Part shown: in pieces, positions 3,028-21,343 of the stretch
Layout: the number at the start of each line of letters is the position of its first letter
How positions within the stretch are numbered: position 1 is the first letter of the stretch
From: Pseudomonadota bacterium
GTDB taxonomy: Bacteria; Bdellovibrionota; FAC87; UBA2466
Assembly (NCBI GenBank): GCA_043718025.1
Contig: JAYSWN010000155.1
Location: forward strand, 1 to 23,304
Direction: 5' to 3'
DNA length: 23,304 nucleotides
The notes under the pieces: generated by a model
What the model was told of the DNA's origin: nothing
The model's database searches: none
What the model saw: only the letters and a program-made list of their open reading frames with translations
Made by a program: the position numbers and the translations under genes

Positions 3028-3492
3028 ATGATTCGTATCGCGCCCGCATCCTTAGCCCTGCTTCCAAAAATGATGCCCCTCATCGCCAACTACCAGCGTT
3101 TTTATGGCATGGAGCCCAATCCAGACCGCAATCTCAACTTCTTTTCGGATTTGCTCGAACAGCCAGAACTGGCGGTGCAATTTGTGGCGCTAACCCCTGA
3201 AGATCGGGTGATTGGCTTTGCCACCCTCTATTTTCTTCCCTCATCTTTAAGCGCCCGAACTTACTGCATGCTCAATGACCTTTATACTTTGCCTGAATTC
3301 CGCGGCCAGGGAATCGGCCGGCAACTGATAAAGCGCTGCCAAGAGCTTGCGAAAGAGCGCGGATTATCAACGCTAGAGTGGTTAACGCAAAAGGAGAATC
3401 AGGCCGCTCAGCGACTTTACGATTCTCTTCCCGCCGAAAAGAGCGAATGGCTTACGTACACTCTCAAGTCTGCTCCGGAGGCTACCGCGTGA
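3028..3492 (+). CDS. GNAT family N-acetyltransferase (SSAT/YhbS-like)
   Basis: LNDLYTLPEFRGQGIGRQL acetyl-CoA motif A, and NQAAQRLYD. Confidence 0.92.
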   Translation: MIRIAPASLALLPKMMPLIANYQRFYGMEPNPDRNLNFFSDLLEQPELAVQFVALTPEDRVIGFATLYFLPSSLSARTYCMLNDLYTLPEFRGQGIGRQLIKRCQELAKERGLSTLEWLTQKENQAAQRLYDSLPAEKSEWLTYTLKSAPEATA

Positions 3493-4610
3493 AACAATAC
3501 GATGTGATTGTTGCGGGATTAGGGGCCATGGGTTCGGCTTCGGTTTACTCGTTAGCCAAGCGAGGCCTTTCGGTTCTGGGGTTAGAACAGTTTTCGTTGG
3601 GTCATGATCGGGGAAGTAGCAACGGCCAACGTCGTATCGTTCGCCGCGCGTACTTTGAAAAAAACGATTATATTCCGCTGCTAAATGCCGCCTACCCCTT
3701 GTGGGATGCGTTGGGAGAGCGATCCGGACGCGAGCTGTTTCACCGCGTCGGATTGGTGGTCTTTGGCGAAAAAGGGAGTAGTCGACTTGCCGATCGCATT
3801 CGCACGGCCGGTCAGGCCTTTAAAATTCCACTCGAGTTTTTAACCGCCGATCAGGCTGGAAAACGCTACCCGTTTTCCATCCCCAGTACGTTTGAAGGAA
3901 CTCTAGAACCCGAAGCGGGCTACGCTGACGTTGAGCTTTCACTCGAGGCTTTGCGCCTTTTCGCCGTTGAAGATGGCGCTGAACTACATGGCGAAGAGGG
4001 GTTGCAAGGATGGAGGGCCACCAACGGTGGAGTTGAAGTCACCACAGAAAAAGAGACTTACGAAGCCAAAAGCTTGGTACTTACCACCGGCGGATGGAGC
4101 GCCCAATGGCTAAAGACAGACCGGGTTAGGTTACGCCCGCGGCGGGCTCCTCAAATGTGGTTTGCCGCGTCAAACCGCTACGAAAAAATTCCGTGCTACG
4201 CTTTCGATCTGCCGCAAGACTTTTATTACGGCTTTCCGAGCCAGTCTGAATGGGGCATTAAACTCGCGGCCTATAAACCGGTCGATGACGTTGAAAATCC
4301 AAGCGCGGTCAGTCCGCTTATTCCCGAGTCTTCTAAAAAAGAGATGGCCGCCATTATCGAGCGCTTTCTTCCGGGAGTGTCGCCAATCCACAGTAAAGAG
4401 AAAATGTGCTTTTATACCCTTACGCCGGATGAAGATTTTATTCTGGATCGTCACCCCCAGCACGCCAATGTGGTGGTGGCCACCGGGGGATCGGGGCATG
4501 CCTTCAAATTCACGCCGGTCATCGGCGAGGTGGTAGCCGATCTGATTAAGGCGGGTTCAACCCGCCATTCGATAGAGTTCTTAAGCTTTCGCCGCTTTCG
4601 CGCGGGCTAA
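3489..4610 (+). CDS. solA: N-methyl-L-tryptophan oxidase / monomeric sarcosine oxidase family flavoprotein
   Basis: YDVIVAGLGAMGSA, GHDRGSSNGQRRIVRRAY, CFYTLTPDEDFILDRHP (covalent-FAD Cys) and GHAFKF. The GTG at 3489 overlaps the GNAT stop (GTGA), so the start was moved from 3378. Confidence 0.88.
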   Translation: MKQYDVIVAGLGAMGSASVYSLAKRGLSVLGLEQFSLGHDRGSSNGQRRIVRRAYFEKNDYIPLLNAAYPLWDALGERSGRELFHRVGLVVFGEKGSSRLADRIRTAGQAFKIPLEFLTADQAGKRYPFSIPSTFEGTLEPEAGYADVELSLEALRLFAVEDGAELHGEEGLQGWRATNGGVEVTTEKETYEAKSLVLTTGGWSAQWLKTDRVRLRPRRAPQMWFAASNRYEKIPCYAFDLPQDFYYGFPSQSEWGIKLAAYKPVDDVENPSAVSPLIPESSKKEMAAIIERFLPGVSPIHSKEKMCFYTLTPDEDFILDRHPQHANVVVATGGSGHAFKFTPVIGEVVADLIKAGSTRHSIEFLSFRRFRAG

Positions 4611-6017
4611 CTCAAGCTGCTCAATCAACATGGTTAAGTGCTCTAAACCAGTAAGCCCGTTCGAAATGCCGGCGCGTAAAACTGTTTTTCCGTGGTGAGT
4701 GAGTTGGGTGGTCGTCACCCACGCTTTTCCTGCCGCCGCTACCGCTTTCGCCACTTCACCGGCGCTCGCCCTTTCATCCGAAAAGCAGACTACCGGCAGG
4801 GGGGTTTCGTTTTCTAAATGCCATCCGGCGGCGCTCAGTTTTTTTCGCAGCTCTCGCCCCATTTCAATTTGCTGGCGCAACACTCTCTGGTATCCGGGCA
4901 CACCGGCCGAAGCTAACGACAGAAATAATTTCAAGCCGATGAACCGCCGAGACCACCCCATTGATCGGTGATAAGGCGGGGCCACGTCCTCAGAATCCGT
5001 TGGCATGTAGGGACTAGCGGTAACTCGAAATGCTTTTTCTAAGACCCTATTTCGTCGACAAAAAAACATTCCCGCCGTCATCGGCACGTTAAGCCACTTG
5101 TGGGCGTCCAGGGTAAGTGAATCAGCGGTTTGGCACCCGTCGAAAAGGGCGGCAAATTCCGGTAACAAGCAAGCCGCTCCCCCCCATGCCGCGTCGACGT
5201 GAAACCAGCATTTTTCTTGGGTCGCCAACGAGGCCAGCCCCGACAAGTCATCGATGACCCCCGCGCTGGTGGAGCCCAAGGTTCCAACAATCAAAAGGGG
5301 AATATTACCCTGCAACCGATCTTGAGAAATCTGAACGCGAAGGGCCGCAATGTCGAATTTCAAATCCGGAGTAACCGGCAGCTCTACGATCGCCGCTAAC
5401 CCGAGGCCCACCATTTTGGCGGCTTTCAAAAACGAGTGGTGGGTTTCGCTAGACACATAGATTCGCGGCAGCCCAGAAATCGCCCGTAAGCCGCCCTCTT
5501 CAAATTCAGGGAAACGCTCGGCCAAGGCACAGAGCACGGCGGAGTAATTGGCTTCGGTGCCACCGCTTGTGAAAATGCCTCCCGATTCGGGACCATCGAG
5601 GCGCAAGTGTTTGGCAAAAAACTTAATTAAATGATCTTCAACTACCACTCCGAAAGGGCTGCTTACCGCAGAGGCCAACTGAGAGTTGCGGGCGCTAGCA
5701 AAAAAGTCACCCACCACGCCCATGGCTGAGGGGTTGGGATTAAACACACCAAAATAATTGGGGTCGCTCAAATTGAAATCGAAACCGCAAAGCTGCTCGG
5801 CGGTCCAGCGCAGAAGTGCTTTATCATCGCACTCGGCCGCAAAGGTGAAAGCCGCCAGCCGCCCTTTTACTTCTGTTAACGAAGGAAGGGGTGCGAGCGC
5901 GTCGTTTTGATGCGATTGCGCTACGGTTGAAAAAGTGTCGGCGGCTAAGGCAATTAGCGAAGCCAACTCAGATTGGTTTAGAAACATTGGTTTTGGTGAC
6001 TCGCTCACAATTTGCAC
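4581..6017 (-). CDS. Group II PLP-dependent amino-acid decarboxylase (DDC/GAD/CSAD family)
   Basis: GIFTSGGTEAN, SSETHHS, WFHVDAAWGG and DSLTLDAHKW (PLP lysine). An alternative ATG start lies at 5987. Confidence 0.93.
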   Translation of the reverse strand: MQIVSESPKPMFLNQSELASLIALAADTFSTVAQSHQNDALAPLPSLTEVKGRLAAFTFAAECDDKALLRWTAEQLCGFDFNLSDPNYFGVFNPNPSAMGVVGDFFASARNSQLASAVSSPFGVVVEDHLIKFFAKHLRLDGPESGGIFTSGGTEANYSAVLCALAERFPEFEEGGLRAISGLPRIYVSSETHHSFLKAAKMVGLGLAAIVELPVTPDLKFDIAALRVQISQDRLQGNIPLLIVGTLGSTSAGVIDDLSGLASLATQEKCWFHVDAAWGGAACLLPEFAALFDGCQTADSLTLDAHKWLNVPMTAGMFFCRRNRVLEKAFRVTASPYMPTDSEDVAPPYHRSMGWSRRFIGLKLFLSLASAGVPGYQRVLRQQIEMGRELRKKLSAAGWHLENETPLPVVCFSDERASAGEVAKAVAAAGKAWVTTTQLTHHGKTVLRAGISNGLTGLEHLTMLIEQLELARAKAAKA

Positions 6018-6043: not shown

Positions 6044-6886
6044 ATGAAATTTTTTATTCTTTCGATCTTGGTTGTGGCCCAGTCTGCTTGGGGTTTAGAC
6101 CAAAAAGAGATTCAACAACGGTACGACGACATCGAACTGCGGAGTCCAGAAACTAAAATTGGAATGAGCCGTGACGAGAGGATTGCCCTTCTGAAAGAGG
6201 TAACCGACCATCCGGTGGCCTCGCTTGAAAAGCTAAGCAAATACGACCCACCCCCCGGTGAGATCGGTTTTTGTTACGGAAGGGCCATGACCGCCCACTT
6301 ATTAGCCCGCAAACATGGGGTGGCCCGAAACGGAATTTTAAAACTCTTCGTGGCCGGCGACATGACCCCCGGTCCGAATCGCCGTTGGAGATTTCATGTC
6401 ACCACGCTGGTGCGCGATGAAACCGGTCAAAAATGGTATTCGATTGACCCCGTGGTCGCCAGCCTCGGAAACCCTGATCCGCTTTTGCCCAATCAGTGGT
6501 TGGCTGCCGCCAAGGCGGAGTTTGATCCGACCGCCACGACCAAAAACTATGTGACGAGTACCGAATCAATCATGGTGGACATGCGTGAGATTCCATCCAC
6601 GCTCGCGATGGAAAACAACGAACGGATCATTGAGGTTAAATTCAACCCTGACCGCCCGGGTTTTACGCCTGAGACTGAGGTTGGGGAACTTGGTTCGTAT
6701 CCCGTTTATCGCTTGGATGCCGACGCCCAAGCCAAATATTTTATTAAACGCCATGAGCTCACCGAGGCCGATGATTTTAATTTTTTGGGCATCTCGGTGA
6801 AAATTTTGACGCCTACCCAGGTGATTTCGCGCGTATATGATTACCGCGCCTATTTCAGCGATCTAATGGAATCTATGGGCCAATAA
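6044..6886 (+). CDS. Secreted protein-glutamine glutaminase-like (Cys-His-Asp) enzyme
   Basis: Signal peptide, then GFCYGRA (C77), WRFHVTTLV (H118) and SIDPV (D135), paralleling the GCYARA/WxxHVA/DP motifs of protein glutaminases. Confidence 0.7.
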   Translation: MKFFILSILVVAQSAWGLDQKEIQQRYDDIELRSPETKIGMSRDERIALLKEVTDHPVASLEKLSKYDPPPGEIGFCYGRAMTAHLLARKHGVARNGILKLFVAGDMTPGPNRRWRFHVTTLVRDETGQKWYSIDPVVASLGNPDPLLPNQWLAAAKAEFDPTATTKNYVTSTESIMVDMREIPSTLAMENNERIIEVKFNPDRPGFTPETEVGELGSYPVYRLDADAQAKYFIKRHELTEADDFNFLGISVKILTPTQVISRVYDYRAYFSDLMESMGQ

Positions 6887-6911
6887 ATTTGCCACTCCGT
6901 TGTGGACCGTT

Positions 6912-8165
6912 TTATTCTTTGACCACAAACAATTCCCCGCGATCTTCCATCGCGCGGATGGTTTGGTAATCTTCTTCGATTGCTATTTTACTTTCGTGCA
7001 CCAGAGTGAGAAATCCGGGCGCCGTAAAATAATCGATCGTCTTTTTCAACTGAGATCCGGGCTTCACCCGCAGTCGCATCTGAAAGAAAGACTTCAAATT
7101 TCTAATGTTCTCTTCGCCGGGAATAGCCGTTACCTCTCCCGCCTGATACGAAGTCAAATATACGGTATACGCCTGTTTCTTTAATCGGTAAGGCCGCAGG
7201 GTCTTGCGCGCGAAGGCTGGTTCGTTGGCGTAAATGTCGGCGGTTAGATCGAGCGGACCAAAACCAACGCACGCCTGATTCACCGCGGGAACCGAAAGGC
7301 CATCCAGTCTCGTTCCCACTTCGACCAAAGCCGGGCCATCGGGGCCCATCATCACTTCGGTATGAGCGGGTCCATACTTAACCTCCAGGGCCGTCAGAAC
7401 CGCGCTTACGTAATCGCGCATCTGCCCCTCTTCATCGCCGTCAAAGGCAAGCAGTTCGTTGCGGTCGTATACGCAGTCATGACCATTGATAGAACGCTTT
7501 TTGTACTTCCAGATCTCGGTAAAATGATGGGCGCCATCAAAACTCACGGTATTTAAAAAGTGTTCGGTCCCCTCTAAAAACTCTTGAATAAGGGCTTCAT
7601 TGTTAGTGAGCCCCAGCATGTTGGTTTTCCCCACAATCGCATTCACGGCGCGCTCAACCTGCTCGGGGTTGGTGCAAACGGCCACGTTGTCGGTACCGGC
7701 GCTGTGGAGTGGCTTCACCACCACCTTTCTAAGATTCTCCTTTTTAAACCACGCCACCACTTCAGCGGGGGTTACCCCTTTAAACTGCTTGGCGGCGCGC
7801 AATCTGGCGTTTCGAACGGTCTCCACCATTTCAAATTTGTTTCGGCGGGCCGAACTCTTTCGCAAACCGTTGGGTTTAATATTTAACCCGGCGCTAAGGC
7901 TATCGGCCAACTCCACTCCAGTTTCCGTTCCCGGCACCACTCCCAAGGGATTGAACTTACGAAGTTGGGCGATTAAACCTTCTATATTTCCATCGAACGC
8001 AAAATTCTGGTCGTAGTCCTCGGGACGAAAGGTGGGGGCCAACACTTTCCAAATTTCTTTGGTGCTTTGCACGTGGGCGACGAGAAAACCCCGGCCGCGA
8101 AATTCGGGCGCCAGCAAATTGCCTGCTGAGTAACCATCTACAATCACTATCCAACGATCGCTCAT
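6912..8165 (-). CDS. ATP-grasp amino-acid ligase, DdaF/NikS-like
   Basis: IVIVDGYSAG...HVQST, ARRNKFEM, VVVKPLHSAGTDNV, QEFLEGTE, GPAHTEV and LVEVGTRL match the ATP-grasp fold and, from memory, the DdaF/NikS subgroup. ATGA overlap with the MATE gene and a GGGGAG RBS. Confidence 0.88.
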   Translation of the reverse strand: MSDRWIVIVDGYSAGNLLAPEFRGRGFLVAHVQSTKEIWKVLAPTFRPEDYDQNFAFDGNIEGLIAQLRKFNPLGVVPGTETGVELADSLSAGLNIKPNGLRKSSARRNKFEMVETVRNARLRAAKQFKGVTPAEVVAWFKKENLRKVVVKPLHSAGTDNVAVCTNPEQVERAVNAIVGKTNMLGLTNNEALIQEFLEGTEHFLNTVSFDGAHHFTEIWKYKKRSINGHDCVYDRNELLAFDGDEEGQMRDYVSAVLTALEVKYGPAHTEVMMGPDGPALVEVGTRLDGLSVPAVNQACVGFGPLDLTADIYANEPAFARKTLRPYRLKKQAYTVYLTSYQAGEVTAIPGEENIRNLKSFFQMRLRVKPGSQLKKTIDYFTAPGFLTLVHESKIAIEEDYQTIRAMEDRGELFVVKE

Positions 8166-9493
8166 AAACTCCCCTTCACTTCAATGCTAAACACTCTCCG
8201 CCATCGGTAGAGCAGAAGCAGGCTAGAGGTCAAAAGGCCAAAGATAAGCCCCACCCAAAGACCAACCAGACCGTATTCGAATACAAAACCAAACAGCAAG
8301 GCCGACGGCAAACCCACCATCCACAATCCCAGAACATTAGAGGACAAAGCGGCTTTAGAGTCACCAAAACCGCGCAGGGTTCCAATTACCGCCATTTGGT
8401 AGCCATCAAACAACTGCAGCACCGCTACCAAGATCATAATGGCTGAGCCCAACTCAATGACCGCAGGATCGACGGTAAACGATTGCATCAGGAAATTTCG
8501 CTTCGCAAACAGAATCAGACCCACCGCAACCATAATTGCCGTGGTCACTCGAATGGCAATTTTACCCACCTGAAAGGCCCGATCCCGATCACCTTGCCCC
8601 AAGGCGTTCGCCACCAGCAAACAACCCGCCGTGCCCATCCCCATTGGAATCATGTAAAAAAATCCGCCGAGATTCAGGCTGATGGTATGCGCCGCCATTG
8701 CGGCGGGCCCCAGCTTGGCCACCAGTATTCCGACCACCGAAAAAGCGAGCGAGCGCGCCAACATTTGCGAGCCAGTGGGAATTCCCAACCGACACAGCGC
8801 TTTTAGCGCCATCACATCCAGTCTGATAATCCGCGGGCTTTTGGTTATATACCCAATATAGAGAATCAACGCCGACGCCATCCCGCCTCGAGTCAAGAGG
8901 GTAGCTAGCCCGCTGCCGGCCACGCCGAGCGCAGGCGCGCCCCATCTGCCTTCAATGAAAGCGGCGTTAAACAGAAAATTGGCGCCGTTGCCCAACACGA
9001 TGGTTGCGGTCGAAAATCGAAGCCGGTGGTGCGACGCCAAATACTGCCGCGCCGTAAAGAACATAAACATGGGGAAAAAGCTTAAGCCCAGGGGCAGCAA
9101 AAATGAGCAAGTGCTCGCAACAAGTTCGGTACTAATTCCAAACCAGGGAAGTAAACCCCTTAGCACCAACGTCGATAAAAAGGCTCCCCCCCCTAAGCCA
9201 ATTGCTAAGTAGCTCGCTTGCCAATACCAAAACCAAGATTTGGCGGCGTCATTTTCTCCCACGGCTCGCGCCGAGTAATACTCAAGCGCAGTGAGCGTGC
9301 CGGTGCAAAAGAGGTGGATCGAAATCGCCAGCGTACTGCCGAGCCCCACGCCCGCCACCGCTAAGGGGCCAAGTCTGGCGACAAACAGGGTATCGACCAG
9401 CACCATCGACATCATTCCGCCCTGAATCAAAACTACCGGAAGGGCCAATCTCAAAAATTGTTTGGTCAGGGTCGGGGTGGCAAAACTTCGCAC
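8162..9493 (-). CDS. MATE family efflux transporter (NorM-like)
   Basis: LALPVVL, VDTLFVARLG, LGVAGSGLAT, QLFDGYQ...GTLRGFGD and GLVGLWVG, with about 12 hydrophobic segments. Confidence 0.95.
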   Translation of the reverse strand: MRSFATPTLTKQFLRLALPVVLIQGGMMSMVLVDTLFVARLGPLAVAGVGLGSTLAISIHLFCTGTLTALEYYSARAVGENDAAKSWFWYWQASYLAIGLGGGAFLSTLVLRGLLPWFGISTELVASTCSFLLPLGLSFFPMFMFFTARQYLASHHRLRFSTATIVLGNGANFLFNAAFIEGRWGAPALGVAGSGLATLLTRGGMASALILYIGYITKSPRIIRLDVMALKALCRLGIPTGSQMLARSLAFSVVGILVAKLGPAAMAAHTISLNLGGFFYMIPMGMGTAGCLLVANALGQGDRDRAFQVGKIAIRVTTAIMVAVGLILFAKRNFLMQSFTVDPAVIELGSAIMILVAVLQLFDGYQMAVIGTLRGFGDSKAALSSNVLGLWMVGLPSALLFGFVFEYGLVGLWVGLIFGLLTSSLLLLYRWRRVFSIEVKGSL

Positions 9494-10074
9494 TCAAATC
9501 CTTTCCAGTTGGTCTTGGCGAGTGAGTATAGAAACATATCGAGGTAGCGCGATTCGAAGGGGTCGAAAGAAAGCTCAGGAATCAATCCAACTTTCAAAAA
9601 CCCAATTTTTTCTACCAACCGCAAAGACCCTAAATTTTTGGGATCGATATTGCCTTCCACGCTATGCAGACCGAGCTCAGCAAAGCCATAGTGAATCACC
9701 GCCGACAGTGCTTGGGTCATCCACCCTTTTTGCCAAAATCGTCTCGCCAGTTTGGCGCCCAGTTCGCCGCGACGGCGAACCCGTACGAATCGCCAAAAAC
9801 CTACATCGCCGCACAAAACGCTGGGGTCGTGTTTTTCGGTGATGGCCCAGCGAATGAGTTCGCCCTTTTGCATCTGATCGGCAACCAGATCGATCAGCTT
9901 TTGGGTATCCCCTCGCGATTGGTGCGCAGGGGTGCCCCAGCCTCTCATCACCTCAGGGTCAGAGTAGAGCGCAAACAGAGCTTCGAGATCGCTTGCGACA
10001 ATGGGCCGTAACAACAGATCGGCAGTAGCGATTGGCTGCGGCGAGAAAGAACTCGGTACGTTAGCGTTTGTCAT
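9466..10074 (-). CDS. RimJ/RimL-type GNAT N-acyltransferase
   Basis: TADLLLRP, FWQKGWMTQAL and NLGSLRLVEKIGF. It overlaps the MATE start by 28 nt. Confidence 0.92.
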   Translation of the reverse strand: MTNANVPSSFSPQPIATADLLLRPIVASDLEALFALYSDPEVMRGWGTPAHQSRGDTQKLIDLVADQMQKGELIRWAITEKHDPSVLCGDVGFWRFVRVRRRGELGAKLARRFWQKGWMTQALSAVIHYGFAELGLHSVEGNIDPKNLGSLRLVEKIGFLKVGLIPELSFDPFESRYLDMFLYSLAKTNWKGFECEVLPPRP

Positions 10075-10158
10075 GAAAGAACCCCACCCTAGTTGACCTT
10101 CTGCATCAAAAGCCGGACTAATGAAAGGGGTAAGTCGTCGTAAATTGGGGTAGGGGAT
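10075..10158. promoter_or_regulatory. 84-bp divergent promoter region shared by the two arms of the cluster
   Basis: Head-to-head starts at 10074 and 10159 with G-rich RBSs on both sides. TTGACC at 10093-10098 is followed by a weak -10 (ACTAAT, 10117-10122). Confidence 0.5.
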
Positions 10159-12195
10159 ATGTTTGTTAAGCGGTTTGATTCGTCAAAAGCCGAAGAGGCT
10201 TACGGAATTCTTTGCCAACGCATCTATCCCCTAGCCAATGGCGAAAGTAGTCTAGAGCTAGCGCCACCGCCTTTTGGCAGCACCTATTGCGAAGTTGAAC
10301 CGCTTGGGGCCACCTCACCGCACAATCACTACGACGGCGAAACTTTTATTATCTTGAAGGGGCAGGGGCGCATGCAGATCGGCGACGAAGCCCAAGACGT
10401 GAGCCCGGGCGACGTTGTGCTGATTCCCCCGTTTTCGCACCACACGCTTACCAATATTTCGAAAATCGATCGGCTTCAGTTCTTGTCGGTTTATTGGGAG
10501 GCTCGCGGCCGCGCGTTTGATGACACTCCCCCAAAAAGGATTTTTCTGGCTTCGGCGCCGCCCACCCCCAACGGTGAGCTGCATCTTGGCCACCTTTCGG
10601 GACCCTACGTAGTCGCCGACATTCTTCGCCGGTTTTATCGGTTGCAAGGGGCGGAGGTTCACTACGTTTGCGGTAGCGACGATAACCAAAGCTTCGTTCC
10701 CGCAAAGGGGGTGGCCCTAGGCCTTACCGCCGAAGGCGTAATCGACAAATTTGTCCCGCAAATCACCGCGGTTCAAGAAAAGATTGGGGCCAAGGCCGAT
10801 TACTTTCTACGCCCGCACGGCAACGCCGCGTACGTATCTTTCGTGCAAGATTTTTTTCTGCAACTGGTTAACAAGGGGCACCTCGTTCTTAAAGACAGCG
10901 AAGTGCTTTACTGTGAAAGCTGCCGAGCTTACTTGCATGAAGCGTATGTAAAAGGCGGCTGCCCCTCGTGCCAGCTACCAACCAGTGGCAACGGTTGTGA
11001 AGCCTGTGGCCTTACCAATGACTGCGTCGATCTCACCGATCCACAATGCAAGCAATGCAATTCAGTGCCGGTGCGTAAACGCATGGCTAAGTACTATTTC
11101 GATTTGGCGCCGTGGAAAGAAAAACTAAGCGCGTTTCTAAACAAGGCAACCGTGCCCGTGCCCTTCCGTCCCTTCGCCAACACCGTGCTTGAAAAAGGGA
11201 TGCGTGAAATTTCGGGAACTCACCCCTGCCCGTGGGGGATTGCACTACCACCCTCGCTCGTCACCGATCAGACTCAGGGGCAGACGATCTATGCGTGGTT
11301 AGAAATGGCCGCAGGTTACGTTTACATGGCGAAAGCACTTGGCAAAGATGGCGACTACACCACCCTTTTGGCTAGTGCAGAGTCGCGCTTCATACAGTGC
11401 TTCGGTTTTGACAACACTTACTTCTATCTCGCATTAGTGCCTGCGCTGTTGATGGCCTACGATGAAAAAATTACGCCGCCCGATTCTTTCGTGATCAATT
11501 TCTTTTATTTGCTCGACGGCAAAAAGTTTTCGACCAGCCGTAACCACGCGGTGTGGGGAAAAGACTTTTTAGATAAAGTTCACCCCGACGTGGCCCGCTA
11601 CTACCTCGCCGCAACGCGGGCCGAGACGTCAGAAAGCAATTTTTCACTTAGCGAATGCCAGGCGCGGGTGGCCGACCAGCTCGAAGGGCAATGGAATCAG
11701 CTCGCCCTCAAACTTGAAAGTTTGTGTACGGCAAACGGCAATCAGATGCCGGGGCGCGAAAGGTCTCTACGGCCTGATCAACAAGCCTTTTTACGTCGTT
11801 TGGAAGATGCGTACTCTCAAGCCACGTACTGTTATCGCGCCGAGAGCTTTTCGATGAACCGTTTAGCCACTTTGCTCGACACCTTGGTTTGCGACGTACA
11901 GGCCAGGGCAACTGGCGCTTTGGCGCTTGCTGAAAACCAGTCACTACTGCCCCTTTTTAAAACGGAATCGGCGCTGGTGTTTACCGCCGCCAAGTATTTG
12001 GGCCTGATCGCCAGTCCCCTTATGCCGCAAATTGGCGGCGAGCTTTATGCCAAGTTTGGGGGGGCAACGGCCGTTACGTGGGGAACTCACATTGAAATTA
12101 TTTTGGAAGGAAGGCCGTTTTTAGAAAATCGCCTGTGGTCCGACCGTTACGTAAAATCATTAGAAGGCATCCAAGCGCTCATCAACGTAGATTAG
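10159..12195 (+). CDS. Cupin / methionyl-tRNA synthetase-like fusion, putative hydrazine (N-N bond) synthetase of the Spb40/Tri28/PyrN type
   Basis: N-terminal cupin with H55-x-H57-x3-E61...H95, followed by a class I aaRS domain (PPTPNGELHLGH, four CxxC zinc-knuckle motifs, KFSTSR in place of KMSKS). The Met-pocket residues are altered, and the gene sits beside a Lys N-hydroxylase and an FAD oxidase. Confidence 0.9.
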   Translation: MFVKRFDSSKAEEAYGILCQRIYPLANGESSLELAPPPFGSTYCEVEPLGATSPHNHYDGETFIILKGQGRMQIGDEAQDVSPGDVVLIPPFSHHTLTNISKIDRLQFLSVYWEARGRAFDDTPPKRIFLASAPPTPNGELHLGHLSGPYVVADILRRFYRLQGAEVHYVCGSDDNQSFVPAKGVALGLTAEGVIDKFVPQITAVQEKIGAKADYFLRPHGNAAYVSFVQDFFLQLVNKGHLVLKDSEVLYCESCRAYLHEAYVKGGCPSCQLPTSGNGCEACGLTNDCVDLTDPQCKQCNSVPVRKRMAKYYFDLAPWKEKLSAFLNKATVPVPFRPFANTVLEKGMREISGTHPCPWGIALPPSLVTDQTQGQTIYAWLEMAAGYVYMAKALGKDGDYTTLLASAESRFIQCFGFDNTYFYLALVPALLMAYDEKITPPDSFVINFFYLLDGKKFSTSRNHAVWGKDFLDKVHPDVARYYLAATRAETSESNFSLSECQARVADQLEGQWNQLALKLESLCTANGNQMPGRERSLRPDQQAFLRRLEDAYSQATYCYRAESFSMNRLATLLDTLVCDVQARATGALALAENQSLLPLFKTESALVFTAAKYLGLIASPLMPQIGGELYAKFGGATAVTWGTHIEIILEGRPFLENRLWSDRYVKSLEGIQALINVD

Positions 12196-12203
12196 GAACC
12201 AAA

Positions 12204-13340
12204 ATGTCAAAAAGTTACGATGTCATTGTGGTAGGAGGGGGCGCCGTCGGCGCTTCGGCCCTCTTTCGCCTGGCCGAGAGAGGCATCACCAATACGCTTC
12301 TCATCGAAGGAAAAAAAAACCTCGGCCGTGGTTCGACCGGATCTTGGGGTTCGCTCATTCGCGTTTATCATCGTAATCCGCGCACTACCGCCCTGGCGGC
12401 AGAAAGCGTGCCCTTTTACCTCGATTTCAAACGACACGTAGGGCGCGATGCCGGCTACGTGAGAACCGGGTCGCTCTATTTTTTAAAGCGGCACTGCCTT
12501 GAGTTGATCAAAAATCAAATGGTGGCCTTGAACAAAGGAACTTTGAAGCTCGAGATCATTGAGGCGGCCGAAGGTAAAAGACGCTACCCAAACTTTCACT
12601 GGTGGGAAGATGACTTTGCGATTTATGAATCGCACTCAGGCTACGCGTGCCCCTGGGCCACTACTGACGCCTGGGTCGATTCAGCGCGCGATGCCGGGGC
12701 CGAGCTAGAGACCGACAACGCCGTGGTGGATTTTTTAACCGAGAATAACCGCGTCACCGGTGTGGTCACGCGCCGAGGCGATGAGTTTCTGAGCGATAAA
12801 GTGGTACTGGCCACCGGAGCGTGGTCTCCCGCGCTATGCCTAAAGCTTGGCATTGAGCTGCCGATCGTCAGTCGGGTGATTCAAGTAAATCACTTTCACC
12901 GCCAAGTGCGTGAAAACGCCGACCCTTTTTTTATTGATTTGGAAGCCCTAACTTTCGGCCGACCCGCGCCCGATGGATCGTTCGTCGGAGGTTGCATGAA
13001 AGAAGAGTCGGAATCGGCCGACACTCTTGTGCAGTCAATTAGTCTGCGCGAGGCCCACGAGGCCAAGCGCCGTTTGTCGACGAGAGTGAATTGGATTAAA
13101 AACGCCAGCATTTTGGGCGGCGTGCGGGCGGTAGAGGCATACACCGGAGACCTCAATGGCCATCTCGAGTATTCGGCTAAATACGAAAACTTGCTAATCG
13201 CGGTGGGTTGGAGCTGCACCGGGTTTACCCTAGCGCCGGTTATCGGCCAGCGCATTGCCGAGTCCATTGAACAAAAAGGGGTCACCAAAAACCTCTGGAA
13301 CTTAAAGCCACCTGGGCTTTTGGTAGACGCTCATGTTTAG
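12204..13340 (+). CDS. FAD-dependent oxidoreductase, DAO/glycine oxidase family (Spb39/Tri27-like role)
   Basis: YDVIVVGGGAVGAS, GRGSTGSWGSLIR, VVLATGAWS and GWSCTGFTLAPVIG. The start was reassigned to the ATG at 12204, which has an AGGA RBS and lies 8 nt after the upstream stop. Confidence 0.9.
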   Translation: MSKSYDVIVVGGGAVGASALFRLAERGITNTLLIEGKKNLGRGSTGSWGSLIRVYHRNPRTTALAAESVPFYLDFKRHVGRDAGYVRTGSLYFLKRHCLELIKNQMVALNKGTLKLEIIEAAEGKRRYPNFHWWEDDFAIYESHSGYACPWATTDAWVDSARDAGAELETDNAVVDFLTENNRVTGVVTRRGDEFLSDKVVLATGAWSPALCLKLGIELPIVSRVIQVNHFHRQVRENADPFFIDLEALTFGRPAPDGSFVGGCMKEESESADTLVQSISLREAHEAKRRLSTRVNWIKNASILGGVRAVEAYTGDLNGHLEYSAKYENLLIAVGWSCTGFTLAPVIGQRIAESIEQKGVTKNLWNLKPPGLLVDAHV

Positions 13341-14619
13341 AAAGCGGCTTTGTATCGTGGGCGCCGGACCAAAGGGATTGGCCATCGCCACCAAGGCGGC
13401 GGCTCTCAGGAGGTTGGGCTTTCAGACGCCCGAACTCTGTTTAATCGATCGCCGAGGGGTAGCGTCGCATTGGGTAGCAGATTCGGGCCTGACCAACGGA
13501 CTGCAGAGTTTGGGTACCTCTCCCGAAAAAGATGTCGGATTTCCGTACGCGTCGTTTTGCTGGGGCAGCGTGAACAACCCCAAAGTGAATCACTTGATGC
13601 AGGAGTACTCGTGGACGTCGTTTCTTATCGACGCCCATTGTTACTCCGACTGGATCGATCGGGGAAAACCTGCCCCTAGTCATCGCCGCTGGGCAGAGTA
13701 TTTGAAGTGGGCTTGGCAAAAAGTGAAGGACGAGACCGAGCTTGTGATCGGACGTTTGGACTCCGCATCTTGCGATGGTGATAAGTGGATTCTGTCGGTT
13801 GATCAGAAAGCGGGTGCACTCAAAACCATTACCGCCAATGGCCTCGTGCTCACTGGCCCCGGCCGGCCGCGCATGCCGGCAGATCTGCCCAATGACGATC
13901 GCATTCTTTCGACCGATCGCTTTTGGCGGGGGTGGGAACAGTACGCGAACCATCGGGGGGCCCGTATCGCCGTGGTCGGAACCGGCGAAACCGCCGCCTC
14001 GATCGCGGTAACCCTGGGGGCCGCCCGGCACGTAGCGGCAGTAGATATCATCAGCCCGCTGGCGATGAATTATTCGCGGGGAGAAAGTTACGTGGAAAAC
14101 CACGTCTACACCGACCCATTCCAGGCAAACTGGTTTGGCCTTACGGTAGAAAACCGCAAAGACTTTATTCAACGAACCGATCGCGGCGTTTTTTCGGTGG
14201 TGGTAAAAAAACAGCTCGATGAAATGGATTGCCTGGAGATCATTCCAGGTCGGTTAACTAGAGTAGAGGTTGATTCACTAAACCAGCTCATGGCCACCGT
14301 GCAGTACGCCGAAACCAGCGAAAAGCGCGAATACCATTACGTGATTTTTGCCACTGGCTTTGAACCGTGGGCGTGGTTCCGCGATATCATGACGCCAGAA
14401 ACCCGCGCCCACTTTCAATTAGGGCTCGGAGTGAACGACCTTGCCGATGGCACGGTAGAGCTAAATATCGAAGAGTCGCTCACTTTAGGAAAAGTGCGGC
14501 CGGCGCTGCATCTGCCGATGATGGCCGCAGTGAATCAAGGGCCCGGCTACCCCAACTTAAGCTGCCTGGGGCGGTTATCGGATCAGATTTTATCGGCCTA
14601 CGTGCCGCTCGAAACTTAA
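13333..14619 (+). CDS. Flavin-dependent L-lysine N6-monooxygenase, MbtG/NbtG subfamily
   Basis: VGAGPKGLAIATKA, LGTSPEKDVGFPY, AVVGTGETAAS, RTDRGVFS, FATGF and QGPGYPNLSCLGRLSD are all characteristic MbtG/NbtG segments. It overlaps the oxidase by 8 nt. Confidence 0.93.
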   Translation: MFRKRLCIVGAGPKGLAIATKAAALRRLGFQTPELCLIDRRGVASHWVADSGLTNGLQSLGTSPEKDVGFPYASFCWGSVNNPKVNHLMQEYSWTSFLIDAHCYSDWIDRGKPAPSHRRWAEYLKWAWQKVKDETELVIGRLDSASCDGDKWILSVDQKAGALKTITANGLVLTGPGRPRMPADLPNDDRILSTDRFWRGWEQYANHRGARIAVVGTGETAASIAVTLGAARHVAAVDIISPLAMNYSRGESYVENHVYTDPFQANWFGLTVENRKDFIQRTDRGVFSVVVKKQLDEMDCLEIIPGRLTRVEVDSLNQLMATVQYAETSEKREYHYVIFATGFEPWAWFRDIMTPETRAHFQLGLGVNDLADGTVELNIEESLTLGKVRPALHLPMMAAVNQGPGYPNLSCLGRLSDQILSAYVPLET

Positions 14620-14675: not shown

Positions 14676-15905
14676 ATGCCTGCGCCGAAACTAAAACAGA
14701 TCACCCAAGACTTTCTCTCCATTGTTCCTCATTTTGCGGACTTTTCGAGCACGGCGAACCTTGCTGATTACGCCGATGTTCCCAAAGACTGGTTTCTCTT
14801 TGTCAGCGATATCCGCGGAAGCACCAAGGCCACCGAAGCGGGTCGGTACAAAGACGTAAACGTAGTAGGAGCCTCGGCGGTGATGGCGGTGCTGAATAAA
14901 ATCAAACCGCACGAAATTTTTTATGTGTTCGGGGGAGACGGCGCCACCTTTTTGAGCCCGCCTGAACTCGCCGACGAGATCACTGCCGCGCTGCTCGAAG
15001 CGCGCGTAATGGCAAAGCGAGAATTTGATTTTGAACTGCGAGTTGGAAAAGTTCCGCTGCTAAATTTGTATGCCGCCGACTGCGAAGTGAAGGTGGCTCG
15101 TTTTAGGGTGTCTCGCCACATCACTCAAGCCGCTTTGGGCGGCGACGGAATAGCGCAGGCGGAGAAGTGGGTAAAGAATCCCTCTGCGGGTGAAACGTAC
15201 GAAGTGATGGAGACCGCCGGCACCCTTAATGCGAACACCGAGGGGCTCGAGTGCCGATGGAACCCAATAAAAAGTAAACGCGGCAAGATGACTTCGATTA
15301 TTGTACAGAGCCTAAATCTAGATCCAAAACGGGCGGCGGCCGACTATCGAGAAGTGCTTACTTTGGTAGATAGCCTCTTCCTTACCAACGAACCGCCGGT
15401 AATTTCATCTGACGGGCTTACCCTCGCCACTAACCCTAAAGCCTACGCCGCCGAATCTAGCTCGCGGCAGAATGGGCTCTCTTTCTGGTCCAGATTAACC
15501 TATGGACTTAAGGCCTATTCGTTAACCGTCGCCTGCTTGTTTCTCTGGAACAGTTTCTGGAAAAGGGCAGGTGAGAAATATAAAAATGAGCTGGTCGTAA
15601 ACACCGATTACCGAAAGTTTGACGGCGTTTTGCGCATGGTGCTCGACCTTTCCGTGAGTCAGATCAAACTTCTTGAAGCCCTTTTAGAAAAAATGGCCGC
15701 GGATGACGAAATTGCCTACGGCCTGCACTTCTCGGATTCGGCGCTCATGACCTGCCTCATCTTCGACCGGGCCCAAGGCAACCATTTGCATTTCGTCGAC
15801 GGAAACGATGGTGGCTACTCCGCCGCGGCTAAAACATTGAAAAAAAGTTTGAGTGCCCGCAATGACCGCGTCTGCTCGGTTAAACCCAAACGGGTTCACG
15901 CCTAA
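14676..15905 (+). CDS. DUF3095 family protein (nucleotide-cyclase-like fold)
   Basis: SDIRGSTKATEAGRYKDVNVVGAS, VFGGDGATF, GLECRWNPI, DYRKFDGVLRM and HFVDGNDGGYSAAA. Confidence 0.88.
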   Translation: MPAPKLKQITQDFLSIVPHFADFSSTANLADYADVPKDWFLFVSDIRGSTKATEAGRYKDVNVVGASAVMAVLNKIKPHEIFYVFGGDGATFLSPPELADEITAALLEARVMAKREFDFELRVGKVPLLNLYAADCEVKVARFRVSRHITQAALGGDGIAQAEKWVKNPSAGETYEVMETAGTLNANTEGLECRWNPIKSKRGKMTSIIVQSLNLDPKRAAADYREVLTLVDSLFLTNEPPVISSDGLTLATNPKAYAAESSSRQNGLSFWSRLTYGLKAYSLTVACLFLWNSFWKRAGEKYKNELVVNTDYRKFDGVLRMVLDLSVSQIKLLEALLEKMAADDEIAYGLHFSDSALMTCLIFDRAQGNHLHFVDGNDGGYSAAAKTLKKSLSARNDRVCSVKPKRVHA

Positions 15906-15910
15906 TTGCA

Positions 15911-16369
15911 TCACTCAAAAAAGACGTGTCGATCGTAGTAACCCTGTTGTTTAGATATTTTATTTCCTTCAAACTCAATAACGTCTATGCCCCGAAAATT
16001 CTTGATCGTCTTTCCCCCGGCTTGCGGCACCGTGCCCAAATACTGAAGAATGAAGCCTTTAGGTGTGGGGTAGACCGAAACGATTTCAAACTTCCAGTCC
16101 GGATACTTTCCAAGCAATAATTTTAAAAACCCACCCACTTCGGCCTGCCCTTTCACTCCTTGCGGAACGTTGGGGTCTTCGTAAACCGCGTCGTCGGTAT
16201 AGAAAGTGAGCAACTTTTCCACCGCCGCCGCTCCCCCTACCCAGTGGGGCAACCATTTTTCACAAAAACTGATGGCTTCAGCTTCGCTCATGGCCAACGC
16301 CCGCGGCGGTTCGGCGGCAAACAAGGCGGCATTTAAAAACAGAACGGTGGCAAAAAACAATGACTTCAC
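15911..16369 (-). CDS. Secreted SnoaL-like / NTF2 family protein
   Basis: FYTDDAVYEDP...G and GIDVIEFEGNKISKQQGYYD. Start reassigned to the GTG at 16369, which follows an AGGAG RBS and gives a clean signal peptide. Confidence 0.85.
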   Translation of the reverse strand: MKSLFFATVLFLNAALFAAEPPRALAMSEAEAISFCEKWLPHWVGGAAAVEKLLTFYTDDAVYEDPNVPQGVKGQAEVGGFLKLLLGKYPDWKFEIVSVYPTPKGFILQYLGTVPQAGGKTIKNFRGIDVIEFEGNKISKQQGYYDRHVFFE

Positions 16370-16397
16370 TTTAACTCCTATTTTTTTAACATTCACA

Positions 16398-17966
16398 TCA
16401 CTCGTCGGCTCCAAGGTACAGGCGGAGCGACTGTTTTTCTTTTTCCGATAACATGCGTTCAGGGGGCATCCGAACCTTGGGGTCGGAGCTATTCACCCGA
16501 TTCATCACTTTGGCGACGAAAGAAGAGGTAAACTCTCCGGGCTTTTCCAATGGCAACGGGGGCGCTGAGCCATTCGAAGGCGAGTGACAGCTAAGGCACA
16601 TTGGCACCGGGTTGATTAGCAATGCCGTCGAAGCGATAGGCTCAACTGGCCCATTCCTCTCATCTTCTTTTTTCAAAACATCGCAGATCGTTGGTTCGCT
16701 CTTTTCGAGTGGAGACGCTGACTCAGGATCCTCATCGTGAAATGGCTGACTCTCTTTAACCTGTAAATTGAGCTCTCCGGTGTGCTCCTCGGCCACGGCG
16801 GCGGGTAAGTTCGGATTCTGCTTTCTCAACTCGGTGAAAAGGATTTGGGCTAAAGGTGCAGATAAATAATTAGAGCCAACATAATAGCTCCAGTTTTTTG
16901 GATCCCGGCTAAGCACAAAGTCGGTGTGTTCAATGCCGAAGGAGGCGGCTAACCACCCCGTTTCTAAATCACTCCCTACGTACCCAACTCGCGCCCAAGT
17001 TGCCAGGTTTCCATGCGGCAATTTTTTTTGAAAAAGAGTCCGGCTGAGAGCCAAACGATCGGCAAAGAGCGCCTTGTATGGATAGCTGCACCGGGCGATC
17101 AGTCCCGCGGTAAGCGCAGGTCCAAAGACCCTAAAGAGGGCCCGATCGGCCACGATCTGATTGGCGAGATGCCTTGCCTGCAACGGAGCAAGTAGTGCAG
17201 TGAAACGCAAGTTGGGTCTAAATTGATAGCCCGATCGCGTTACCGTGTTGTAGGGGCTAACTGGAGAGCCCTCGGGGAATTGTAGATAGCGGTAGCGCGA
17301 ATGCTTCGGTACCAGCTGCTTAAAACGGCGAAACGCATCGAGCTCCGCTAATCGAACGGCGATAAAGCCTGCGGTTTTATCGAGCCCGGCGTACTTCTCG
17401 GCGCGAAAATCAATGAGGGCGTCGTCATCGTGACCATAGGCGCCGGGCCATTGGTCGTATGGCTCCCAGATTGGCCGCAGTGGCTGGTAATGACACCGAG
17501 CACACTTGGCGGGATTGGCCTCAGAAAGTGCGGGTCGCGACTCGCCTGAAAAAATGATTTCACGAAACTGCCACGATTGTGGTGCAGTTGATTCGAAGGC
17601 GATGATCTCAACCGCGTTGTAGCCAGCCTGTTTTGGATGACCATTGAAGGTGTAGATAAATTTTGCATCGGGCCCAAAAACGATGGCCCGTGGAAACGTT
17701 TCTGACCCCCGCTGCAAGCTCAAGCTATGATTCATCAGCGTGAAACCCGACAGATGAAGTGGGTGATTTTGCTTTACCCACTCCAAAAAAGTTTCCACGC
17801 TGTTAAACGCAGGGACCTTAGCTTCAATCGCTTTTTCAAGGTCAGAAAGAGTGAGCGTCGAAGGTAGGGTAGAGAGTTTGTCGTAGTTTAAATCACCGCC
17901 GGCGCCAAACGCCTCAACAACGTAATGGAGAACCACGATCCCCACGATCAGTATAAAACCCCTCAT
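16398..17966 (-). CDS. Exported c-type cytochrome with two CxxCH motifs
   Basis: CARCH and CLSCH, a C-terminal RMPP axial-Met motif and an N-terminal signal/anchor from the ATG at 17966 (GGGGGG RBS). The ORF-track start at 18068 would leave only 3 nt to the divergent gene. Confidence 0.75.
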   Translation of the reverse strand: MRGFILIVGIVVLHYVVEAFGAGGDLNYDKLSTLPSTLTLSDLEKAIEAKVPAFNSVETFLEWVKQNHPLHLSGFTLMNHSLSLQRGSETFPRAIVFGPDAKFIYTFNGHPKQAGYNAVEIIAFESTAPQSWQFREIIFSGESRPALSEANPAKCARCHYQPLRPIWEPYDQWPGAYGHDDDALIDFRAEKYAGLDKTAGFIAVRLAELDAFRRFKQLVPKHSRYRYLQFPEGSPVSPYNTVTRSGYQFRPNLRFTALLAPLQARHLANQIVADRALFRVFGPALTAGLIARCSYPYKALFADRLALSRTLFQKKLPHGNLATWARVGYVGSDLETGWLAASFGIEHTDFVLSRDPKNWSYYVGSNYLSAPLAQILFTELRKQNPNLPAAVAEEHTGELNLQVKESQPFHDEDPESASPLEKSEPTICDVLKKEDERNGPVEPIASTALLINPVPMCLSCHSPSNGSAPPLPLEKPGEFTSSFVAKVMNRVNSSDPKVRMPPERMLSEKEKQSLRLYLGADE

Positions 17967-19405: not shown

Positions 19406-20140
19406 ATGTGGCTTCTTTTTTTTCTATTCATTGCCATCTCAACTACTAACGCTGGCACGGCACCGAATACTTGTCCGCCTGGTCACCATTGGGTGAAGGA
19501 GCACCATCGGCGGGCCTATTATCGCGCGGAGGGGACGCTTGTTTCAGCAGCGGATGTAGCAGCGCATTGCCGGAAGAATCCATCAGGGTTTCACGCGTGG
19601 AGTGGGTTACTGAAAGAAGGCCGTCCTCCAAACTGGCGGCATCCCAACGAACAATCAAAGAATTGGTCGGTGGAGGAAACCGAGCGAATGTTAGAGGCAT
19701 TGGGTGAGACGCCCGCTATGTTGAAGGAACAGGGAGTTGATGGATTTTATAGAATGGCAAAGGCGAATGCTCCGGGTAATCCAGCGTCCCTGCGTGGAAC
19801 TAGCGTCGCCGTGTATGACGAAGCATTTGAGAAAGAACATGTGCTTGCTCACGTCTTGGCACATGAACTCGCCCACCGATTGTTTGAAGGCCTTTCTGAG
19901 GATGAAAGAAAGTCGTTCCTGCGTGCCGGAAAGTGGAAAGACGTCGGTGGTGGGCGTTTCTCCACTCAACGCGTCGAGACCACATTTCTTCGAAAAGTCG
20001 GAATGATAAGTCCCGAAGAGGACTTTGCGGACGGCGTCAGTGCCTGTTTTCATCAGCCGAAAAAGTTAAGGGAAACCTCCCCCGCTCTGTATGACTGGAT
20101 GGAAAAGCACGTTAAACTGAAAACCAAGGAAATAAAATGA
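19406..20140 (+). CDS. Secreted zinc metallopeptidase-like protein (HExxH)
   Basis: Signal peptide, VLAHELAH and a downstream SPEEDFAD third-ligand motif followed by PxxL...PxxY, as in anthrax-lethal-factor-like/MtfA-type gluzincins. Confidence 0.7.
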   Translation: MWLLFFLFIAISTTNAGTAPNTCPPGHHWVKEHHRRAYYRAEGTLVSAADVAAHCRKNPSGFHAWSGLLKEGRPPNWRHPNEQSKNWSVEETERMLEALGETPAMLKEQGVDGFYRMAKANAPGNPASLRGTSVAVYDEAFEKEHVLAHVLAHELAHRLFEGLSEDERKSFLRAGKWKDVGGGRFSTQRVETTFLRKVGMISPEEDFADGVSACFHQPKKLRETSPALYDWMEKHVKLKTKEIK

Positions 20141-21266: not shown

Positions 21267-21343
21267 CGGGGCGTAGCGCAGTTGGCTAGCGCATCTGCTT
21301 TGGGAGCAGAGGGTCGTGAGTTCGAGTCTCGCCGCCCCGACCA
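21267..21343 (+). tRNA. trnP: tRNA-Pro (anticodon TGG)
   Basis: 77-nt cloverleaf: CGGGGCG/CGCCCCG acceptor stem, GCGC D-stem, TCTGC/GCAGA anticodon stem with TGG at 21301-21303, GTTCGAGT T-loop and an encoded CCA end. Confidence 0.98.

Follow-up and report, generated by a model that had tools for sequence, protein, structure and literature searches.

A stretch of 23,304 nt (contig JAYSWN010000155.1 of assembly GCA_043718025.1; here called the window), from a Pseudomonadota bacterium placed by GTDB in Bdellovibrionota (FAC87; UBA2466), carries a compact gene cluster centred on a hydrazine synthetase, a fusion of a cupin to a protein resembling methionyl-tRNA synthetase (MetRS). The source assembly is 4.14 Mb in 234 contigs and 92.4% complete. 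Two operons diverge from an 84-bp spacer (10075..10158). On the forward strand lie the synthetase (10159..12195; Pfam Cupin_2 and tRNA-synt_1g), a DAO-family flavin adenine dinucleotide (FAD) oxidase whose clade is restricted to clusters of this type (12204..13340; PF01266), and an NbtG-type L-lysine N6-monooxygenase (13333..14619; Pfam Lys_Orn_oxgnase). On the reverse strand lie a RimJ-fold GNAT (9466..10074; PF13302, Acetyltransf_3, E 1e-32), a MATE exporter (8162..9493; Pfam MatE; TIGR00797, 222.5 against a cut-off of 147.4) and a PRK07206/TabS-like ATP-grasp amide ligase (6912..8165; Pfam ATP-grasp_4; NF005543 (PRK07206), 424.6 against a cut-off of 302). A first-pass annotation had placed these six genes at 6912-14619. 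All of the open reading frames (ORFs) were found at the coordinates and on the strands it gave, and its gene labels were backed by Pfam and NCBIfam. Recomputing the junctions returned the same values: overlaps of 4 nt (ATP-grasp/MATE), 28 nt (MATE/GNAT) and 8 nt (oxidase/hydroxylase), a gap of 8 nt between the synthetase and the oxidase ATG at 12204, and the spacer of 84 bp.

The same annotation had described a minimal set of six genes, which proved too narrow. A group II decarboxylase of 468 aa that depends on pyridoxal phosphate (PLP) (4581..5987, reverse strand; PF00282, E 3e-53) is a core member, and this gene and that of a sarcosine-oxidase/SolA-like flavoenzyme (3489..4610, forward strand; NF008425, 353.5 bits against a cut-off of 257) are linked to the cluster as tightly as the MATE or the GNAT gene. 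A SnoaL/NTF2-like gene (15911..16414, reverse strand; PF12680) probably also travels with the cluster, as does a second, short GNAT acetyltransferase gene (3028..3492, forward strand; PF00583), which overlaps the sarcosine-oxidase-like gene by 4 nt. The conserved cluster is about ten genes.

The identification of the fusion protein as a hydrazine synthetase was borne out. Its best match in the PDB is PyrN-C (9VQ4, E 1e-65), and its AlphaFold model (predicted local distance difference test score, pLDDT, 90.7) aligned by Foldseek to PyrN-C 9L8V with a template modelling (TM) score of 0.93 and a root-mean-square deviation (rmsd) of 2.6, against TM 0.74-0.85 and rmsd 4.2-6.8 for MetRS structures. 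The zinc-cupin residues are intact, H55, H57, E61 and H95 being equivalent to PyrN H50, H52, E56 and H90. The MetRS-like domain has HLGH at 142, KFSTS at 456, four CxxC motifs, T136, N138, Q177, D418 and N419. These residue roles are taken from PMC8664883, where the cupin Glu is essential in PyrN, and bioRxiv 2025.08.22.671884. The zinc cupin, the MetRS-like motifs, the proximity to PyrN-C and the neighbouring N-hydroxylase gene (13333-14619) all point to membership in the hydrazine synthetase family, and an N-N bond is very probably formed.

If no N-N product were made, the cluster might instead yield a siderophore-like hydroxamate, by way of N-hydroxylysine, the acyltransferase and the decarboxylase, or the fusion might be a MetRS that charges tRNA. 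Databases do name the fusion 'methionyl-tRNA synthetase', and siderophore pathways use NbtG-type hydroxylases, GNATs and group II decarboxylases. However, the fusion scores 269.9 against the MetRS cut-off of 587, which is far below it, fits PyrN-C far better than MetRS, and keeps the catalytic cupin Glu, while a canonical MetRS with an HIGH motif is encoded on contig C64 of the same genome. Our Pfam scan, which took in 21 ORFs of the window (90 aa or more), returned no siderophore synthetase family. We regard this alternative as very improbable.

The eight-residue pocket of the synthetase reads APDQWMNY. Published codes are TPDQWMNH for Gly and SADQWYGH for Thr (PMC12376268); the window pocket agrees with the Gly code at 6 of 8 positions, short of the full code, and retains the Asn whose loss is proposed in the same paper to let Thr in. 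As a control, the same column mapping gave TPDQWMNH for the azaserine-type synthetase of L201, a locus assigned by gene order that serves here as an uncharacterised azaserine-type stand-in. L201 lies on the Streptomyces lavendulae plasmid pSA3239, where its gene set keeps the azs order and adjoins a serS paralogue and a VlmB-like gene. APDQWMNY is the commonest pocket code among the synthetase's nearest relatives (73 of 129 aligned sequences). The pocket suggests that the amino-acid substrate is a small residue, with Gly most likely and Ala possible.

Lysine had been proposed as the nitrogen donor, and we find this likely: the nearest solved relative of the hydroxylase is the L-Lys monooxygenase 4D7E (E 6e-90), which we take to be NbtG, and KtzI is matched at just E 6e-6. 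Cadaverine or a diamine was also considered as donor, and was judged unlikely because the hydroxylase is of the NbtG type.

The cluster's membership was established from 160 synthetase loci, 80 taken from 500 confirmed in genome contigs and 80 from 272 in metagenomes. The genome contigs were searched by an alignment-based scan; a single-protein scan of them gave no match. Nine genome-set loci that duplicated scan loci were counted once. A close ATP-grasp gene is present at 13 of the 160 loci. The decarboxylase occurs at 11 of these 13 and at none of the other 147. The sarcosine-oxidase-like gene and the MATE gene each occur at 10 of the 13, the RimJ GNAT at 9, SnoaL at 6 (it is embedded in the planctomycete clusters), and the short GNAT at 5, with 17 among all 160. 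Because many loci are short, the count was redone on the 85 loci of at least 15 kb. The 74 of these that lack the ligase have no decarboxylase, sarcosine oxidase, RimJ GNAT or SnoaL, one MATE and eight short GNATs. The short GNAT is a common companion of hydrazine synthetases and a probable cluster member.

Two ligase-bearing loci have no adjacent decarboxylase. L078 is a different cluster and has the Gly code; in L075 the decarboxylase is on the same contig at a distance of about 290 kb, next to a fragment of the ligase. Two copies of one apparent transposase ORF (6785-7828 and 17075-18118 of L075; see also L196) flank the partial cluster. Synthetase and decarboxylase are both retained where the cluster is split (G061, about 290 kb apart). 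The expectation that the left operon co-occurs with the hydrazine cassette in other genomes held, with 11 different gene orders among 12 loci. Because the grouping recurs, rearranged, in other genomes, it is more than chance.

The same pattern is seen at the level of the family. The synthetase is found in 11 of 34 family genomes and the decarboxylase in 8, all of them among the 11 and none among the 23 synthetase-negative genomes; these genomes are related, so the co-occurrence counts overstate independence, which weakens the case we make from them. In the remaining three synthetase-positive genomes the synthetase sits at another kind of locus, beside a GNAT and an EamA-like transporter. SnoaL is present in 5 of the 34, each time with both synthetase and decarboxylase. 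In a tree of 145 distinct synthetases (152 extracted, with matches of at least 430 residues retained), a 13-row clade with FastTree support of 0.94 has 11 of the 12 intact-cluster enzymes. Its two further rows come from clusters broken by a contig end or split, and the intact-cluster synthetase of L069 lies outside it. A further protein, P0072, is a single chain of 1154 aa with cupin, MetRS-like and lysine monooxygenase Pfam domains.

The decarboxylase has the PLP lysine motif and the loop tyrosine. General homologues of the decarboxylase form a clade of 82 rows. None of the 21 decarboxylases labelled as cluster-linked belongs to it; they differ in a pocket-lining motif, and the cluster enzymes mostly lack a Trp of a pocket-lining loop. 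Label changes counted on this tree are given no weight, because genomic context is lacking for most of its rows. A search of the ESM Atlas with the decarboxylase gave generic PLP-decarboxylase clusters and nothing else. The sarcosine-oxidase-like protein has sarcosine oxidases as its nearest structures and keeps the residues equivalent to Arg52, Tyr55 and Lys348.

The ligase had been described as of the DdaF/NikS type. It is an ATP-grasp amide ligase, as that description held, and the DdaF part did not stand (NF041595, 223.6 against a cut-off of 840). Its nearest structure is 30VH (E 7.5e-66), which by sequence is TabS of the PMC13338154 supplement. It is weakly related (E 3e-5) to the ATP-grasp of the azaserine-type cluster; azaserine and thrazarine clusters contain an ATP-grasp of unassigned role (PMC12376268, PMC10445470). 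The RimJ GNAT matched the AzsS-like gene of L201 at 24% over 184 aa (E 7e-13) in a six-sequence comparison, and by this measure the two appear to share a fold family as distant homologues. The AzsS/Tri31 GNAT family succinylates hydrazinoacetate (PMC10445470; bioRxiv 2021.05.12.443849). No carrier protein, AMP ligase, non-ribosomal peptide synthetase (NRPS) or polyketide synthase (PKS) was found among the 21 scanned ORFs, and no carrier or A3 motif in a six-frame read of the window.

From gene content, family motifs, fold and co-inheritance we infer a route in which the cupin-MetRS enzyme forms an N-N bond and the carrier-free window yields a small, exported hydrazine amide or hydrazide. This is our leading reading, and we hold it tentatively, with somewhat less than even confidence. 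First, the NbtG-type enzyme would N6-hydroxylate L-lysine, as strong homology suggests. Second, the synthetase would O-aminoacylate N6-hydroxylysine with the small amino acid predicted above (Gly or possibly Ala), and its zinc cupin would rearrange the ester to Lys-NH-NH-CH(R)-COOH, as expected of the family to which its motifs and fold assign it. Third, by analogy with Spb39, Tri27 and FuzF, the adjacent FAD oxidase may cleave the lysine C6-N bond to release a free hydrazino-acid unit. Fourth, the AzsS-like GNAT may acylate the free nitrogen of the hydrazine, which would shield that group or protect the producing cell. Fifth, and this is the weakest step, the PLP decarboxylase may provide an amine that the TabS-like ATP-grasp would couple to the carboxylate of the hydrazino unit, perhaps ahead of the cleavage by the oxidase. 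Sixth, the sarcosine-oxidase-like enzyme may oxidise an N-substituted amino acid, either taking the hydrazine to a hydrazone or acting on a pipecolate by-product. Finally, the MATE protein would export the product. A hydrazide-type product, as first proposed, is plausible. Supporting precedents are FuzC, an ATP-grasp that forms a hydrazide (PMC13149037), the E-64 pathway, where a decarboxylase, an ATP-grasp and an adenylating ligase give acid-amino acid-amine compounds (PMC12568646), and the succinylation of hydrazinoacetate by a GNAT (PMC10445470; bioRxiv 2021.05.12.443849). The Gly-type adenylation domain found in three related loci (below) also speaks for the route.

Several points weigh against this route. 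The known reactions of TabS-type ligases couple one amino acid to another, whereas the route needs an acid coupled to a bare amine. Among characterised enzymes, the closest to the decarboxylase is at E 4e-50. The sarcosine-oxidase-like gene is not exclusive to the cluster, because it is found in 23 of the 34 family genomes. The hydroxylase and oxidase had been taken for the counterparts of Spb38 and Spb39, and this orthology fell away: in the six-sequence comparison they matched the AzsL-like and AzsM-like genes of L201 only at E 0.037 and E 0.023, and the oxidase sits in a separate clade, so the two enzymes are best described, from these comparisons, as analogues. The same oxidase family is able to cleave the other side of the N-N bond, as Apy10 does (PMC11705231). 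The literature searched, structure-paper supplements aside (these may hold one), gave no substrate assignment for APDQWMNY; the ThzN supplement has no Ala or Ser synthetase codes, and the Zhao 2021 supplement lists substrates without codes. Finally, the E-64 decarboxylase was dispensable in the host tested (PMC12568646).

Some of these points favour a fuscazine-like alternative, close to the view of the first-pass annotation. The freed hydrazino acid would be the nucleophile, acylated by the ATP-grasp with an amino acid so that the product is a hydrazide dipeptide, while the decarboxylase and the sarcosine-oxidase-like enzyme would merely supply precursors or clear by-products. FuzC carries out this reaction (PMC13149037), and TabS, the ligase's nearest structure, is a dipeptide ligase. 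A dispensable decarboxylase, as in E-64, and a sarcosine-oxidase-like gene that is present without the cluster would both fit. However, no gene is linked to the cluster more exclusively than the decarboxylase, which is also kept in the split cluster and has a changed pocket motif; this is more than is usual for a dispensable supply gene. We consider this alternative rather unlikely.

The adjacent oxidase bears on a second alternative. The oxidase tree groups the 15 cluster-type copies, and nothing else, in a single clade with support of 1.0. All 15 have W48 and no Lys or Arg at the column of sarcosine-oxidase Lys348, whereas the 25 other synthetase-adjacent oxidases all have Ser and Lys or Arg at those two columns; the carboxylate roles of Arg52, Tyr55 and Lys348 in sarcosine oxidase are from PMC12582975. 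This change may hint at a substrate whose carboxylate has been removed or masked. The hint is weak, because the tree shows the change arising once and the proline dehydrogenase 1Y56 likewise lacks the Lys348 equivalent; both facts also count against the leading route. A model of the oxidase (pLDDT 86.3) gave generic matches to sarcosine-oxidase and proline-dehydrogenase folds, which did not tell which bond is cut.

In this second alternative the lysine carbons would stay in the product. A cut on the C-alpha side, for which Apy10 is the precedent (PMC11705231), would leave N6-amino-lysine, the decarboxylase would strip off the carboxyl group of lysine, and the substrate for ligation would be a hydrazine, cyclic or of the aminocadaverine type, produced by further oxidation or by cyclisation with the help of SnoaL. 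The cluster has two amine oxidases, the adjacent oxidase lost its carboxylate-binding Lys in exactly the decarboxylase-bearing clusters (15/15 versus 0/25), and the lysine alpha-amine is the sole primary amine of the conjugate open to a PLP enzyme. However, the decarboxylase is not closer to the desferrioxamine-pathway enzyme 5O5C (E 2e-28) or the diaminobutyrate (DABA) decarboxylase 2QMA than to aromatic decarboxylases, and presumably lacks the acidic residue at the distal-amine position of the 5O5C/2QMA-type enzymes. SnoaL is also absent from 7 of the 13 ATP-grasp loci. We think this alternative unlikely.

Among the closest known systems is the fuscazine (fuz) cluster of Microbispora fusca (PMC13149037), which was set beside the window by gene content and description rather than by protein alignment. 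Both have a lysine N-monooxygenase, a cupin, a MetRS-like enzyme and a flavin oxidoreductase, and both rely on an ATP-grasp for ligation, with no carrier protein; the fuz product is a hydrazide. The fuz cluster differs in its split cupin and MetRS, its use of Arg or hydroxy-Arg, its two ligases, an Fe/alpha-ketoglutarate dioxygenase and a tRNA deacylase. In the window cluster, cupin and MetRS-like parts are fused and the pocket is of small-residue type. Its single ligase is accompanied by a PLP decarboxylase, a second oxidase, a MATE protein and two GNATs, and the 21 scanned ORFs include no second ligase, Fe/alpha-ketoglutarate Arg hydroxylase or tRNA deacylase. The Spb38-40, Tri26-28 and AzsLMN cassettes (PMC11705231, bioRxiv 2021.05.12.443849, PMC10445470) share the triad of hydroxylase, didomain synthetase and DAO-family oxidase and six of the eight pocket residues, and their AzsS/Tri31 GNAT appears to have a distant homologue in the window; the window differs from them in its NbtG-type hydroxylase, oxidase clade, pocket code and lack, among the scanned ORFs, of a carrier protein, AMP ligase, NRPS or PKS. 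The actinopyridazinone (apy) and por systems, compared by their description in a review (PMC11705231), also have a small amino-acid synthetase, and their oxidase family can cut on one side of the N-N bond or the other. Their hydroxylases are for DABA or ornithine, and apy has a carrier protein. The TabS, PRK07206 and DdaF ligases are likewise stand-alone ATP-grasp amide ligases and have no N-N chemistry, and the window ligase falls below the DdaF cut-off. The E-64 cluster (PMC12568646) also combines a stand-alone ATP-grasp with a cluster-encoded PLP decarboxylase that supplies an amine. It differs in having no N-N chemistry and in attaching the amine with an adenylating enzyme, which is absent from the window and present in three related loci.

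Two earlier expectations about novelty gave way to the literature. The gene set had been thought to be without precedent, yet fuscazine combines a carrier-free synthetase cassette with ATP-grasp ligases to make a hydrazide; because it has been published (2026), the carrier-free logic is not new. The non-actinomycete host had also been presented as a surprise, and active synthetases are on record from Microcystis, Pseudomonas, Bacillus, Colwellia, Corallococcus and others (PMC11705231, Table 2). The association of such synthetases with lysine monooxygenases and GNATs was recorded in 2010 (PMC2922099). A hydrazine synthetase together with this decarboxylase, ligase and oxidase set did not appear in the literature searched (subscription papers, MIBiG and bioRxiv supplements aside), including the available parts of the reviews PMC11705231 and PMC13755311. 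The available parts of PMC13274452 and PMC13338154 held nothing against the novelty of the gene set, and those of a planctomycete preprint no mention of hydrazine. The core chemistry is thus known, and the finishing enzymes form a set that is met again in relatives of Bdellovibrio and in cell-engulfing planctomycetes.

The nearest synthetase loci are labelled Bdellovibrionota, Pseudobdellovibrionaceae, Bdellovibrionales, or the older Deltaproteobacteria or Pseudomonadota. At E 1e-50 or better, the cluster-type oxidase turned up in 9 of the 301 genomes searched for the window's phylum, including G016, which has the other locus type. For the phylum of genome G065 it turned up in 3 of 301. These three are L097 (Ca. 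Uabimicrobium amorphum, a cultured organism), L104 (Uabimicrobium sp.) and L086. The Uabimicrobium-side set is a compact nine-gene block in which all nine genes have window homologues. Uabimicrobium engulfs bacteria (PMC11032199) and Bdellovibrionota are described as predators (PMC8067016), which is suggestive, and only suggestive, of a connection between the cluster and predation. The link is not exclusive, because L069 is labelled 'Cyanobacteria bacterium'.

A bolder reading would be that the pathway moved between unrelated bacteria-eating lineages, Bdellovibrionota and the phagotrophic Uabimicrobium, and serves predation, for instance as an inhibitor of a prey enzyme. Its product would belong to an undescribed carrier-protein-free N-N class, a hydrazinoacetyl-amine or a lysine-derived cyclic hydrazine made by a dedicated decarboxylase and a re-tooled oxidase. 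We find this quite doubtful as a whole. Hydrazine synthetases are widespread, and few have been tied to products, those mostly from actinomycetes (PMC11705231). The present cluster family is compact and can be synthesised and tested in E. coli, a path already taken for fuscazine, and one member comes from a cultured organism. A product would tie a substrate to the pocket code APDQWMNY and show the role of a decarboxylase in N-N chemistry. It could also be the first defined small molecule from these lineages.

A subtype of the cluster (L016/L057, L017/L033 and L069/L197) has no RimJ GNAT and has an extra adenylation domain and FAD oxidoreductase. The adenylation domain is carrier-free (L016:1032-2477; L017:3-2774, fused to the ATP-grasp; L197:6233-7561). 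Its signature, read by eye, is DILQLGLIWK-like, which we take to be a Gly-type code. The related code DILQLGMIWK is given for Gly (PMC12283262). A second synthetase locus type (L020, L021, L022, L070, L073, L082, L171, L176, L178, L185 and L186) has the same pocket code and an NbtG-type hydroxylase, and no ligase or decarboxylase; L020-L022 have GNAT-like and EamA-like neighbours. Many synthetases of Thermoanaerobaculia/Acidobacteriota loci (L031-L056 and similar) have APDQWMNY or APD[SC]WMNY with Arg at 386, and no homologue of the window oxidase or hydroxylase lies nearby. At L203:7424-8986 (genome G006), a second DAO-family oxidase stands with a short GNAT, and the 12.7 kb fetched gave no synthetase match.

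A protein-glutaminase-like (Cys-His-Asp) gene (6044..6886, forward strand; a weak PF18626 match of 21.8 bits against a cut-off of 25) has an apparent signal peptide, judged by eye from the sequence, and paralogues on two other contigs. It occurs at 3 of the 13 ATP-grasp loci and 3 of the 160 overall, and adjoins the decarboxylase in differing gene orders in the window, at L030:7272-8564 and at L047:5141-6499. It may be an accessory gene, encoding a target or a maturation enzyme, or else a passenger. In the window and its genus relatives, the SnoaL-like protein begins with a hydrophobic stretch that resembles a signal peptide; the Uabimicrobium copies do not. Three neighbours were rejected as members. 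Cysteine dioxygenase (CDO; 160-804) was found at 0 of 160 loci at a 60-bit cut-off, and a taurine-type link was dropped because this gene, near the decarboxylase, is syntenic within the genus only. A glycosyltransferase (752-1720) was likewise found at 0 of 160 loci and is syntenic within the genus only. The DUF3095 protein (14676..15905, forward strand; PF11294), a probable passenger, was found at 2 of 160 loci, both of the same genus.

Promoter-like sites (8, with 7.6 expected from shuffles) and terminator-like sites (18, with 21.0 expected) in the window were not above chance, and no promoter-like site was called within the 84-bp spacer. The G+C content is 53.6% in the six genes and 51.9% in the genome, so there is no sign of recent arrival. 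At 19406-20769 the window carries a two-gene pair with a paralogous pair on contig C227, and next to it a tRNA-Pro gene (21267-21343).

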